DNA of 37,474 nucleotides. Source: Perkinsus olseni. Lineage: Eukaryota. Below are positions 3,240 to 7,162 of the stretch, one piece after another. The stretch is taken from the NCBI GenBank assembly GCA_013115125.1, contig JABANN010000339.1, forward strand, positions 1 to 37,474. The letters are read 5' to 3'. A program made the position numbers and the translations under genes. Position 1 is the stretch's first letter, and each line of letters begins with the position of its first letter. The notes beneath the pieces are model-generated. The model ran no database searches, was not told where the DNA came from, and was given only the letters and a program-made list of their open reading frames with translations.

Positions 3240-5609
3240 TCAGTACGGGTTCGATCCGCGGCCTTGTCCCACTGAAACAATTGAGCATAAAAGGCCTAAT
3301 AACGTGGCGCGGTTACTACTGTTTCCACGAATCTGGCTAAGAGGCAAGCCCATGACTTGAGCGGCGGCCTCTTCTTCGCCCTTTTTAATCTGACGAACGA
3401 ACGAAACTCGAAAGACCATTCGATGGAAGCCTCCTCCTCCTCACCTGAACCTTCAGTCGCTTGCCAGTGTGAGTAGCGAAGCCATCCATTGTACGAACCG
3501 CTTGGACAGCACTCGGTACTTCGTTGAATGATACGAAGCCGTAACCCTTCGACTGGCTCGTCATGTTGTCGACTATGACCCTGAGAAGAACACCCAGCTT
3601 GCCGGGAACTATGATGTGGCGTTCTCAAAAGTACTTGGTGGTAGAGATGGAACCGCAAGATCCGAACTCTCTAGCAAGATCGGCGTCTCTCCACTCGGGC
3701 GGAATGTTGTAGACGAAAATGTTGGCTAAGACAAGCACGTGGTGAGCGACGCCTCGAGCTGGACTGAGCTATTCACCTCCAAGGGGGCCATTCTTCGGGT
3801 GCTGCTGTGCTCTGCCGGACTGCTGACCAGACTGTGACAAGTTCATCTGACCATACCCTCCTCCCGGTCCGAAATTACTGCTCTGCGGCGTCTGCTGGAA
3901 CCTGAGAAAATCGGCCTTTGGTTGGGACATCCCTCGAGCGGGAGGGATCCTCAAACGAACCTTACCCGCCACTCTGGGGCTGCTGCTGTTGCTGTGGAGG
4001 CGGTGGGGGCGGTCCCATGTTTTGGAACTGAGAGGCCGAGAACGCTGCCGACCGAGACATGCCCAGCACCCCAGCTCTCACCTCGAAAGGCACTTCCCAT
4101 TGCGTCTGCCCGGTCTGCGAGTTGTGGTAGTAGTAACGACCGTCAGGGTGGTTAAGGTACTCCGTCCACGGCCCAGCTCGACGAGGTTGAGCTGCTGCGG
4201 GTGGTGGTGGCTGAACCATCAACGCTGCTCATAATAACACACTGTAGTAACCTACAGGTGGCTGGTATCCGCCGGAACGGCTTTGGAACCCTTCTCGCGG
4301 TCCTCCGCCCATCTGAGGCATCCTGTCGAATCCTCCCTGATCCGAAGTGCGGAAAGATCTGTCTCCACCGCCCTGGAACCGATGAGAGTCCGTCTCCTGT
4401 TTATGCGCCAGCCTAACAGCAGTTCACAGATTCTGTTGGACTCCACTCGAAGGAAATTCCCGCCCACCTCTGCTCTCTAGTGTCGGCGCATTTGACGGTG
4501 ATCGGATGGGGCTCGGCGGGGAAGGTATATTTGTCATTCAAAGCTTCAATGGCATTGAGAGCATCGGACTTCTTAGAGTATCTCACGAAGGCCGCCTTGT
4601 TGCCGCTGGCCCTCTTCGACTCCAGACTGTAGGCCTCGGTGACGTTACCGTACCTTCCCCAGAAAACTTACTTCTCTCCAGAAAGCGGGTATCGAGTACT
4701 CACTCATCAAAAATTTGTTTAAGCTCATCGTTGCTAGTGGCCGGTGGTACCTGAACGAGAACATGAAAACCCAATCAACCCACGGAGGCACAGCACTTAC
4801 ATTGCCGACAAACAACTTCTGGGAGAATCCTTCAGTGTCGTCGGGGAGACCAAGTCTCTCGGGCTCGCCATTAGCAAACTGCACTTGAATGAAGCCACAT
4901 GCCTGACAATGAGACAAGAGATGCCACCTGTTCGGCTCGTGAGCGACTTCACACTGACGAGACACGTAACGATGATGCTCAATTGAAGCAATGACAAAGT
5001 AAATGACCTTACACAGTAACGAAGGAGGGAAGATAGAGAGATGGGTAGTACATCGTCAGCTTTATACGTTCCATTAAGAGATTTGATGGCAGTAGCGGCT
5101 TCATGGACAGCACCAAACTTAACGAATGCACAGCCTGGAGGAATACAACAACATCAACATCAAACTGGCTGCTGTGGCAGTGAACGGACAACTCGATGAT
5201 GATGACGATGCTACACTGCCAATCATGGGGTAACATAGGGCTGGTTAACAGACACTAAGGACGCTAGTGAAGGGGGTAGGGCAAAATCATCTAGTCACCG
5301 ACAAACAATCGAGCATGGCCTCGTCACGGGTGAGGCTTGGACCGGTGAGATGAGCTACCTGTCTGTTGCTTGCCGTTATCTTTGGGCCTGATCAGGCCGA
5401 CCTCCTGGACTTCGCCATACCTAAGCGAATCAAGTCATTTTGAGCTGAAGCACGTTCCCGACTGTTTTTCGATGAGATGGAAGCGTTTGCTGCTGCTGCT
5501 GCTGCTGTTAGACTTACGCCTCGAAGAGATCACGAATGTTCTGCTCTTTCCAGGAGACAGGAAGCTTGCCCACGAAAAGGCGTACTGGGATGCGGATCGA
5601 GTCTGCCAT
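3240..5609 (-). CDS. CELF/Bruno-like RNA-binding protein (RRM-RRM-WW-RRM), multi-exon
   Basis: ATG 5609 MADSIRIPVRLFVGKLP (RNP2), GCAFVKF (RNP1); IQVQFANGEPERLG..KLFVG RRM2 with AAFVRY; WW domain WTEYLNHPDGRYYYHNSQTGQTQWEVP; third RRM GPLGANIFVYNIPPEW..RGYGFVSF; ends ..SNPY* at 3240, like the CELF ..PY* terminus. Confidence 0.88.
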
Positions 5610-5751
5610 GCTGTCTTCACTGTCCTCTGCGTCGCCGATCTTCTACGTGCTGTTTTCGTGCACTTGCATGAAATCTTCTGTCGATCACGAAATCGATAAG
5701 ATGTTAGCGAGGGTACATCGGTGAGCAAAGCCAAACCACGAATCAATAACA

Positions 5752-6456
5752 ATGGTTGTCAAGGGAATCGCTAAGAAGGCCTCCAAGAAGGTCGAGAAGC
5801 AGACCTTGAAGTTCGTTGTCGACTGCGAGAAGCCCGTCAACGACAACGTCATCGATGCTGAGTCTTTGGTAAGTTGGTATGGGACTGGAGTTTGGGCTTT
5901 GGTCGTTGAGGCTATGGTTGATACTTGAATGATGAGACCTATTCTTTCCCCGTATGATCAAGATGATTATACCACAGCTGACTAATTCTTTTCTGACCGT
6001 ATCGAACCACTAGCAGCTTCCTTGAGCGAATCAAGGTTTCACTTAACTAGTTCTTAAACTGTTCTTTTTCAGGCCGAGTTCTTCCGCAACCGCATCAAGG
6101 TTGAGGGCAAGACCGGTAACCTCGGTGAGCGCGTCACTGTCGCTAAGACTGGCAAGGCCAAGATTGTCGTCACCGCCGCTGCTCCCTTCTCCAAGCGTTA
6201 CCTCAAGGTAAGCCCAGGGCCACCTTCCCTGGAATCGCCGCGCTAGTCGTGTGCGTTTTCCTAGTAGGTATGCGAAGCGCTCTAGGATCTGCGTCTGTGG
6301 TCGGTTTCTTAATTAGTGATTGCATGTTTTTGTTTTGTGTAGTACTTGACCAAGAAGTACTTGAAGAAGCAGCTCCTCCGTGATTTCTTGAGGGTTGTCG
6401 CCAGCAACAAGAACACTTACGAGCTCCGTTACTTCTCCATCAACCAGGAAGAGTAA
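5752..6456 (+). CDS. RPL22: 60S ribosomal protein L22 (eL22); exons 5752-5868, 6073-6207, 6343-6456
   Basis: Spliced translation [57 protein letters not shown]...[38 protein letters not shown] with GT-AG introns. Confidence 0.97.
5925..6000 (+). ncRNA. Intronic box C/D snoRNA in RPL22 intron 1; probable snR190/SNORD12-like guide to LSU rRNA
   Basis: Box C ATGATGA 5929-5935, box D CTGA 5993-5996; guide TTCTTTCCCCG before a D'-like ATGA is complementary to conserved LSU CGGGGAAAGAA; the D+5 rule lands on the third G of GGGG (yeast G2395 equivalent). Host intron is 204 nt versus ~50 typical. Confidence 0.8.
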
Positions 6457-6570
6457 ATGGTTCCCAAGTCGTGATCATTGGCTAGGTTGTTCCCTGCGAC
6501 CTGCTTGATTCGCGGTTGCGATCTCGGTTTTGTTGTGTGATGCGGTTGTCAATGGGAACTGTTTTGCCTG

Positions 6571-6660
6571 GATGCTAATGATGATTATTTTCATACGTTA
6601 GACTCTGACGCCACGCGCGTGAAGAGAAAACCATTGGAATTCTGCAAATCTGAATGCATC
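6571..6660 (+). ncRNA. Box C/D snoRNA with two guides (5.8S and LSU)
   Basis: Terminal stem GATGC/GCATC; C ATGATGA 6578-6584; D' CTGA 6605-6608; C' GTGAAGA 6619-6625; D CTGA 6650-6653. D guide GGAATTCTGCAA(AT) is complementary to 5.8S TTGCAGAATTCC (Gm75-equivalent site); D' guide CGTTAGACT is complementary to LSU AGTCTAACG. Confidence 0.9.
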
Positions 6661-6672
6661 TAATGAAACCCT

Positions 6673-6757
6673 TGTTGAAGTGATGCGATAAGACATATTC
6701 TTCTTTCCACAGACTAACTGTGAAGAATCGAATCGCTGACTCACCGTCTGATCAGCA
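6673..6757 (+). ncRNA. Box C/D snoRNA (paralog A) with guide to LSU GGAAAGAAGA
   Basis: Stem TGTTGA/TCAGCA; variant C GTGATGC 6680-6686; D' CAGA 6710-6713; C' GTGAAGA 6720-6726; D CTGA 6748-6751; guide TCTTCTTTCC. Confidence 0.8.
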
Positions 6758-6767
6758 CTTTTGCTGC

Positions 6768-6851
6768 CGATGAGATGATGCGAAATAATCTTCTTTCCAC
6801 AGATCCATGTGAAGAAGTTATTCGCTGACTATTCTCTGGCTGATCTCATCG
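6768..6851 (+). ncRNA. Box C/D snoRNA (paralog B), diverged tandem duplicate of the preceding one
   Basis: Stem CGATGAG(A)/TCTCATCG; variant C ATGATGC 6775-6781; D' CAGA 6800-6803; C' GTGAAGA 6809-6815; D CTGA 6840-6843; shares TCTTCTTTCCACAGA and TCGCTGACT with paralog A. Confidence 0.82.
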
Positions 6852-6856
6852 TTAAT

Positions 6857-6928
6857 GGGAATGATGAAGATATTTTCTGTGAGCAAACAAGCATGATAAT
6901 CTCAAACAACTTTAATATACTCTGACCT
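6857..6928 (+). ncRNA. Box C/D snoRNA with SSU rRNA guide
   Basis: C ATGATGA 6861-6867, D CTGA 6922-6925; 16-nt guide AACAACTTTAATATAC is complementary to conserved 18S GTATATTAAAGTTGTT. Confidence 0.88.
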
Positions 6929-6942
6929 TCAATGTAATGATA

Positions 6943-7023
6943 ATGCCAATGATGATCTAAATCAATTATCACATACGTTAGAACGGATTGTAAGTGATTG
7001 ATAACTTCCTATTACTGAGGCAT
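6943..7023 (+). ncRNA. Box C/D snoRNA with LSU guide overlapping that of 6571-6660
   Basis: Stem ATGCC/GGCAT; C ATGATGA 6949-6955; D CTGA 7015-7018; internal CATACGTTAGA identical to the guide in the first cluster member; C'-like GTGATTG. Confidence 0.8.
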
Positions 7024-7037
7024 ATTGTCTGTTGAAG

Positions 7038-7162
7038 CATCGTCGGGAGGACCCAGTGTGTAGTCCCTTTGGGTTCTAAGTGAGGTGGACACGATTTGCA
7101 GACGGGAAGAACCAGCCCTCGCAAAGGGAAGTCTGTGAGCGAAGTTAGCCGTCACTACACCG
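7038..7162 (+). ncRNA. Candidate box H/ACA snoRNA
   Basis: Hairpin AGGACCCA 7048-7055/TGGGTTCT 7070-7077; ANANNA box ACACGA 7089-7094; second hairpin GACGG 7101-7105/CCGTC 7149-7153 with upper stem CTCGCA/TGTGAG; ACA 7157-7159; abuts the C/D cluster. Confidence 0.5.

Follow-up and report, generated by a model that had tools for sequence, protein, structure and literature searches.

How are guide RNAs supplied when their genes lie, closely packed and on the same strand, directly behind a ribosomal protein gene? This question is raised by a locus of Perkinsus olseni at which a preliminary description had placed five box C/D snoRNA units at 6571 to 7023, just downstream of RPL22, and had proposed that they derive from a polycistronic precursor, possibly by RPL22 read-through. 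We analyzed the whole of the contig that carries this locus, 37,474 nt in a 39.9-Mb eukaryotic assembly, referred to below as the window; the locus itself (5700-7060) is single-copy, with no paralogues elsewhere in the genome. The rDNA spacer of this assembly carries what appear to be primer sites for the genus Perkinsus and for P. olseni. The host gene RPL22 (eL22) and its 3′ flank comprise the following parts.

5752 to 5868, + strand: RPL22 exon 1, from the ATG; open spliced frame of 121 aa, with the GT..AG joint present in 4 of 4 runs
6073 to 6207, + strand: RPL22 exon 2; Pfam PF01776, E 9.6e-13, and splice joints
6343 to 6456, + strand: RPL22 exon 3, to the stop codon TAA (6454-6456); Pfam PF01776, E 2.5e-15
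6457 to 6515, + strand: RPL22 3′ UTR; the mRNA contigs of four runs end at 6474, 6482, 6514 and 6515
6526 to 6539, + strand: GU-rich tract just 3′ of the putative poly(A) site, read from the sequence

Both RPL22 introns were spliced in all four public runs compared. We infer a poly(A) site near 6515, since contig ends cannot fix a transcript end, and the GU-rich tract behind it is a putative downstream element. At the RPL22 5′ end, no spliced leader was seen in two full mRNA contigs, both of which map over their whole length. A multi-exon gene for a protein with RRM and WW domains lies head to head with RPL22 on the − strand (about 3385-5642), the apparent start codons of the two genes being approximately 110 nt apart.

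Inspection of the spliced host and its flank gave six units, one in RPL22 intron 1 (I1) and five in the downstream train (U1 to U5).

5920 to 6003, + strand: I1, intronic box C/D snoRNA in RPL22 intron 1, SNORD12/snR190-like; C 5929-5935, guide 5942-5952, D′ ATGA 5954-5957, C′ 5963-5969, extra pairing 5977-5984, D 5993-5996
6571 to 6660, + strand: U1, double-guide C/D snoRNA; C 6578-6584, D′ 6605-6608, C′ 6619-6625, D 6650-6653
6674 to 6756, + strand: U2, C/D snoRNA, paralogue of I1 and U3; C GTGATGC 6680-6686, guide 6699-6708, D′ CAGA 6710-6713, C′ 6720-6726, extra pairing 6734-6741, D 6748-6751
6768 to 6851, + strand: U3, C/D snoRNA, paralogue of U2; C ATGATGC 6775-6781, guide 6789-6798, D′ 6800-6803, C′ 6809-6815, 12-bp extra pairing 6823-6834, D 6840-6843
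6858 to 6928, + strand: U4, C/D snoRNA with a weak stem; C 6861-6867, D guide 6907-6920, D 6922-6925
6943 to 7023, + strand: U5, C/D snoRNA; C 6949-6955, D′ guide 6970-6982, D′ CGGA 6984-6987, C′ 6994-7000, D 7015-7018

The five units of the train were borne out by a strict scan for C box, D box and stem on both strands of the window, which returned seven + strand rows, all inside 6578-7018, and nine − strand rows scattered over six places. The layout given in the preliminary description also agreed with measurement: the first stem base of U1 is the 115th base after the RPL22 stop (114 nt between) on the same strand, the spacers between terminal stems, put earlier at about 5-15 nt, are 13, 11, 6 and 14 nt (17-26 nt from the end of a D box to the next C box), and the stretch is AT-rich, with a GC content of 0.38 versus 0.45-0.61 in 1-kb bins of the window. 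I1 had been overlooked in that description and was missed by the strict scan due to an offset stem; it was spotted by eye. All six units carry a C box near the 5′ end and a D box near the 3′ end, 60-100 nt apart, and a terminal stem of 5-9 bp is present in I1, U1, U2, U3 and U5. The earlier statement that all five units of the train have these boxes and stems thus stands for U1 to U3 and U5, with the C boxes of U2 and U3 ending in C (RTGATGC), off consensus at the last base, and needs correction for U4, whose stem has only four pairs, two of them Watson-Crick, and which shows no clear D′.

I1, U2 and U3 align as paralogues. When the window was searched with Rfam, a check proposed at the outset, no family reached its gathering score anywhere (best 32.9 bits versus 36), while a cut-off of E 10 let through 30 matches, 28 of them to C/D snoRNA models lying over the units on the + strand; I1 scored 25.6 bits against RF00581 (SNORD12), below the cut-off of 43. 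Folding z-scores of the units were mixed (+1.8 to −2.8) and were not used as evidence. Altogether, we have very little doubt that the six units are real C/D snoRNA genes. They are members of the textbook box C/D class; what sets them apart is their organization as 3′ trailers across several hosts, described below, next to stand-alone clusters that bear an upstream element.

The guides were compared with the rRNA of the organism itself, of which 3192 nt are assembled: the SSU 3′ half, 5.8S and the LSU 5′ 1545 nt on one contig, and 570 nt of LSU on another, the 5′ half of the SSU gene and much of the LSU being absent from the assembly. For each unit, the longest perfect duplex to these 3192 nt was set against 2000 dinucleotide shuffles. 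It measured 15 bp for U1 (reached by 1 of 2000 shuffles), 13 bp for U5 (by 5), 12 bp for U3 (by 20) and 11 bp for I1 (by 99); the 10 bp of U2 (420 shuffles) and the 9 bp of U4 (1090 shuffles) are not above chance alone. Among 880 window tiles, those over the train included, three had a duplex of at least 13 bp. Because its own duplex is at chance, U2 draws its support from homology to U3 and I1, and U4 was judged by a decayed SSU-like copy because the true SSU 5′ half is unassembled.

Every matched guide sits in D/D′+5 geometry. The D guide of U1 forms a perfect 15-bp duplex with 5.8S and points to G74, while its D′ guide forms a perfect 14-bp duplex with the LSU and points to the U one base 3′ of the conserved Cm663; the D′ guide of U5 pairs over 13 bp with the same LSU stretch and points to the A two bases 3′ of Cm663. 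The guide of I1 pairs over 11 bp plus 8 bp with the LSU piece L014 (helix 73), its D′+5 position being the equivalent of yeast 25S G2395, and those of U2 and U3 pair over 10 bp each with helix 73, their D′+5 position falling three bases away on the equivalent of yeast A2398. Extra pairing just upstream of the target site amounts to 8 bp in I1, 8 bp in U2 and 12 bp in U3. The D guide of U4 has a 14-bp match, only to the decayed SSU-like copy L008, and predicts a U in the SSU. An earlier claim that the guides address 5.8S, SSU and LSU therefore holds for 5.8S and LSU, with pairing of 10-15 bp to the organism's own molecules, and for the SSU only through the decayed copy, and it does not extend to the D-side guide of U5, an orphan that has no match in the 3192 nt of rRNA, much of the rRNA being missing from the assembly. 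Genome-wide, this orphan guide had six matches versus six for the control, i.e., chance level, and no RNA family lies at the five other places. A separate C663 guide was sought elsewhere in the genome with one pattern and none was found, the sole extra match having neither a C box nor an RNA family. Decayed rRNA-like fragments are scattered in the genome (L008, L006, L009, L012 and L003).

The positions were named from published numbering together with the sequence context of A649 for the C663 anchor and that of Um604 for the U4 site; SNORD96 and SNORD104 are taken as the family names for the Gm75 and Cm663 sites. For helix 73, C2392/G2395 as given in PMC8536666 served as the anchor, and C663 was fixed by its 14-nt spacing from Am649 in yeast, plant and human numbering in the site table of PMC8583080. 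By the same table, U1 G74 is a site of the human Gm75/Arabidopsis Gm79 type, so that the D guide of U1 predicts the same nucleotide as the 5.8S Gm75 guides (SNORD96/snoR39BY), and the U4 target is probably the Arabidopsis Um604 position, given the table plus sequence context, the same nucleotide as for plant Z267. The D′ guides of U1 and U5 address the region of the snR58/SNORD104-type guides, but the two bases 3′ of C663 and not C663 itself (PMC8583080). The equivalents of U664, A665 and A2398 are not among the Arabidopsis sites tabulated around them. U2 and U3 look, from their alignment, like duplicates whose guide slid three bases, and the sets I1/U2/U3 and U1/U5 would be natural examples of guides that were duplicated and then shifted in register.

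Transcripts were examined in assembled run contigs only, from which neither strand nor true ends can be read. One of them covers the train.

6492 to 7019, strand not readable: one RNA-run contig over the 3′ flank and all five units; run X1, 528 nt, no mismatches

The X1 contig bridges all four inter-unit junctions, which fits the polycistronic precursor proposed earlier, although a contig does not prove one molecule. It begins at 6492, inside the mRNA-covered RPL22 3′ UTR, with an overlap of only 23-24 nt that falls below the 31-letter bridging rule at the poly(A) region, and it breaks one base after the D box of U5, where a different contig continues. Run X1 is heavily spliced, and its RNA nature is a guess. 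Contig depth was 634 over the train, 441 and 584 on introns and 26 downstream, values that cannot rank gene parts. Runs X2, X13 and X19 gave no contig cover over the train, and a gap in contigs proves nothing.

The train behind RPL22 has counterparts elsewhere in the genome. A tandem-box pattern gave 169 genome-wide matches (100 listed) versus 34 for the control, and a tighter version gave 21 versus 0; from the two lists 29 loci were chosen by eye (20 + 9), and C/D units were present in 12 of them. Hosts were sought by Pfam on 298 same-strand frames around the 12 loci, leaving out 23 frames of a 13th locus, L049. Six of the 12 clusters begin 125-494 nt behind the stop codon of a gene on their own strand, namely RPL39 (L046), RPL18 (L048), RPL36 (L050), HSP70 (L056), RPL7A (L066, named from an L7Ae protein match) or RPP0 (L070), and several of these trailer loci hold tandem near-identical copies and assembly gaps. 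None of the L048 guides matched the rRNA pieces present in the assembly. The other six clusters comprise one after an oxidoreductase frame of uncertain 3′ end, one 918 nt after a V-ATPase gene and four for which no host was identified. Rfam on the 12 sister loci returned four snR61 matches above the cut-off, all in L069; the L058 cluster contains a duplicated block. RPS7 and RPL5, a divergent pair not chosen through snoRNAs (L171/L178), have no trailer. Trailers are thus common, not universal, behind ribosomal protein (RP) genes.

RPL22 loci were also taken from metagenomes, the best 80 of 131 confirmed ones, with 35-75% identity and no close relative among them. None of the window's guides in box context and no same-strand train was detected in these 80, in a weak test that sees only exact 9-10-mers of the Perkinsus rRNA pieces. 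The duplex/box test gave one + strand row in the 80 unrelated loci (257,634 nt) versus seven in the 4.4-kb control locus.

A candidate for the source of transcription is a short palindromic element upstream of RPL22.

5680 to 5697, no strand assigned: bipartite promoter-like element, one-mismatch ATCGAT-N6-ATCGAT, between RPL22 and the divergent RRM/WW gene

This is the only copy with at most one mismatch in the window, and the perfect palindromic bipartite form has 272 sites in the genome versus 1 for the control. In the 300 nt preceding the first C box, ATCGAT is absent from all seven trailers and present at all six other clusters (L051, L052, L055, L058, L067 and L069), the background chance per 300 nt being about 0.08-0.14; Fisher's test gives 0.0006, or 0.005 if L069 is counted as a trailer, values that are descriptive since the element was found in the loci in which it was counted. 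The perfect bipartite form lies 77-82 nt before three of the six non-trailer clusters and precedes the starts of RPL39, RPL18, RPL7A and RPP0; the starts of RPS7 and RPL5 share one central copy, and RPL36 and HSP70 are without it. Among 13 further element sites, one lies between two RP genes, two lie beside mid-protein Pfam matches and ten have no Pfam neighbor. By its position the element is a candidate RP/snoRNA promoter element, and it could alternatively be a small dispersed repeat. Because it is absent from the trailers and present before RP starts and host-less clusters, the trailers probably borrow the promoter of their host. The suggestion of RPL22 read-through gains support in the same way, with the element missing from the gap and present before RPL22, next to a contig overlap at the poly(A) region of only 23 letters. 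Among the matches listed in a literature search, there was no Perkinsus paper with the ATCGAT-N6-ATCGAT motif.

We consider the following route probable, with moderate confidence. RNA polymerase II would start at the RPL22 promoter, splicing would release I1 from intron 1, and the polymerase would continue beyond the poly(A) site near 6515 to transcribe all five units of the train. The mRNA would be released by cleavage at that site, leaving an uncapped downstream piece, on which 5′-3′ trimming would stop at the first assembled snoRNP and 3′ trimming just after the last D box, with cuts within the 6-14-nt spacers separating the units. The rescued piece would thus be trimmed into guides for fibrillarin-dependent 2′-O-methylation, and a single transcription event may supply one ribosomal protein and six rRNA guides. 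Co-transcription, entry by poly(A) cleavage, the nucleases, the mature RNAs, their methylation and the promoter function of the element are what we infer in this model. Counting against it, PFS11 behind Plasmodium RPL5 gave no read-through product (PMC2656528), RPS7 and RPL5 of this genome carry no trailer, three of the predicted sites fall outside the tabulated Arabidopsis ones, and the element is not uniform as a promoter, given its 13 further sites and its absence from RPL36 and HSP70.

Several other explanations of the train have to be weighed against run-through. It may be an independent polycistronic gene whose own promoter is hidden in RPL22 exon 3 or the 3′ UTR, its proximity to RPL22 reflecting genome compaction. 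Such a gene would resemble the host-less clusters of this genome (L051, L052, L055, L058 and L067) and neighboring snoRNA genes of Tetrahymena, each with an upstream element about 100 bp away (PMC6315972), and the Plasmodium pair behind RPL5 is reported as co-transcribed, yet not linked to the mRNA (PMC2656528). The X1 contig falls short of a formal bridge over the poly(A) region, but it does start at 6492, within the mRNA-covered 3′ UTR, and ATCGAT, present at all six other clusters, is missing from the 300 nt before U1 and before six other trailers, which makes an own promoter distinctly unlikely. The guides may instead come from a minor long RPL22 isoform in which the proximal poly(A) site is skipped and the transcript is sacrificed, so that mRNA and snoRNA output compete. 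The contigs cannot separate this reading from run-through followed by a poly(A) cut: the X1 contig runs from within the 3′ UTR to U5, and Plasmodium PFS9 was amplified together with the RPL7a coding sequence (PMC2656528), but no molecule with spliced exons plus train was seen among the contigs, and the mRNA contigs of four runs stop at 6474-6515. We regard the long isoform as unlikely.

Doubt may also be directed at what the units do. Several of them (U2, U3 and perhaps U1-D′ and U5) could be non-methylating chaperones or placeholders in rRNA folding, or the train could stay one linked multi-snoRNP RNA, the spacers being too short for an Rnt1-type hairpin. Budding-yeast snR190 also base-pairs with LSU helix 73, without methylating G2395 (PMC8536666), the boxes of U2 and U3 are non-consensus (C RTGATGC, D′ CAGA, C′ GTGAAGA), and the U3 guide can fold into an internal stem. 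Set against this are the D/D′+5 geometry of all matched guides, the activity of divergent C′/D′ motifs in yeast and the gain in methylation from extra pairing (PMC3116282), and the fission-yeast and human snR190 orthologues, which do methylate (bioRxiv 10.1101/2024.10.03.615557). We think this reading unlikely though not negligible, and it can hold together with run-through and with the other alternatives. It is scarcely credible that the train consists of chance boxes in an AT-rich spacer or of dead snoRNA pseudogenes. The lack of Rfam matches at gathering level, the U2 and U4 duplexes that alone lie within the shuffle range against the assembled rRNA, and the want of a close relative for a conservation comparison would fit that reading; against it stand a run of five units on one strand and a sixth in the intron, all with the guide in the correct position, the duplexes of U1 and U5, which 1 and 5 shuffles out of 2000 equalled, the single + strand row in 80 unrelated RPL22 loci versus seven in the control locus, and RNA-run cover that ends at the last D box.

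The closest precedent comes from another alveolate. In Plasmodium, PFS8/9/13 lie after RPL7a, PFS11/12 after RPL5 and PFS14 after RPS25 (Mishra et al. 2009, PMC2656528), and one downstream snoRNA was linked there to its mRNA by RT-PCR. Both genomes thus have same-strand C/D snoRNAs 3′ of RP genes, with some also intronic, and L7Ae/RPL7A is a host in both. They differ in that the Plasmodium arrays comprise 1-3 genes that lie 367-629 nt behind the stop, with 290 bp between them, whereas Perkinsus RPL22 has five units, 6-14 nt apart, at 114 nt; Perkinsus trailers occur at seven hosts, including HSP70; RPL22 is outside the Plasmodium host list; and RPL5, a trailer host in Plasmodium, is without a trailer in Perkinsus (PMC2656528). 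With six more hosts here and the Plasmodium precedent, the arrangement is less singular than the preliminary description implied.

I1 is SNORD12-like and not a shown member of that family. It resembles SNORD12/snR190/snR107 in having a D′ guide directed at LSU helix 73 that places G2395 at +5 (PMC8536666; bioRxiv 10.1101/2024.10.03.615557), and its site matches the human SNORD12 and fission-yeast snR107 targets (bioRxiv 10.1101/2024.10.03.615557, PMC8583080 and PMC8536666). For snR190 and HBII-99, extra base-pairing beside the target has been described (PMC3116282), and the second pairing elements of I1, U2 and U3 fit that description. U2 and U3 differ from SNORD12/snR190 by their three-base shift to A2398, and I1 is hosted by RPL22, in contrast to the U14 dicistron or ZFAS1 that host SNORD12/snR190/snR107. 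A box B/ASE2 pairing was also sought in I1, U2 and U3, and no perfect duplex of at least 9 bp to the first 1545 nt of the organism's LSU was found.

Plants, yeasts, trypanosomes and Euglena likewise have polycistronic snoRNA clusters with tightly packed units and local duplicates, on one precursor as we presume for the train; those clusters are driven by their own promoter or are intronic, whereas the Perkinsus train seems a 3′ run-on of a protein-coding gene. Such clusters are also mentioned in PMC2656528. Human SPA RNAs, in which a snoRNP blocks XRN2 (review PMC10894041, on Wu et al. 2016), resemble the train in the chemistry proposed, a snoRNP that would halt XRN2 on a co-transcriptional product, but SPAs are 16-34 kb polyadenylated lncRNAs, while the product here would be a 0.5-kb precursor of working guides (PMC10894041). 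In fission yeasts, a Homol-D box is common to RP and C/D snoRNA genes (PMC4138321), which parallels one cis element for RP genes and stand-alone snoRNA genes; the candidate Perkinsus element differs from it in sequence, being the palindromic ATCGAT-N6-ATCGAT, and is not at all RP genes. UTR-located snoRNAs were only scattered in the accessible text of PMC6461891, PMC9465071, PMC12246861 and PMC3542256, and a literature search, with subscription journals mostly outside its scope, found no study on Perkinsus snoRNA genes.

We tentatively put forward a wider view, to which we give somewhat less than even weight. Perkinsus may routinely make snoRNAs from RNA that other eukaryotes discard, namely what lies beyond the poly(A) cut in transcripts of highly expressed genes, with two snoRNA classes in one ribosome-biogenesis regulon, stand-alone trains with their own element and element-less trailers borrowing that of an RP or HSP70 host; the scattered Plasmodium 3′-UTR snoRNAs would be what is left of this route, inherited from a common ancestor, and guides, once duplicated, may walk along the rRNA by one to three bases, creating lineage-specific marks. 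If the trailers are real, they would represent a third host-dependent supply route for snoRNAs beside introns and own promoters, and the 2009 Plasmodium observation would be settled, a single genome offering at least seven loci for testing. They would also provide a candidate RP promoter element for the Perkinsus lineage at the base of dinoflagellates, in which, to our knowledge, promoters are poorly known.

Release of the units by an Rnt1-type RNase III was considered and not adopted, the spacers being too short for an Rnt1-type hairpin. The genome has four RNase III domain matches, of which a single 1048-aa frame, presumably Dicer-like, holds two; at L179, L180 and L182, two neighboring frames of more than 1000 aa carry RNase III domains, one of them two. 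Separately, a 17-18-nt word is common to RPL22 intron 2 (6249-6265) and the RPL39 intron (L046:2170-2187), one inserted base apart, and these were its only two places in the 353 kb of own loci scanned, overlaps included.
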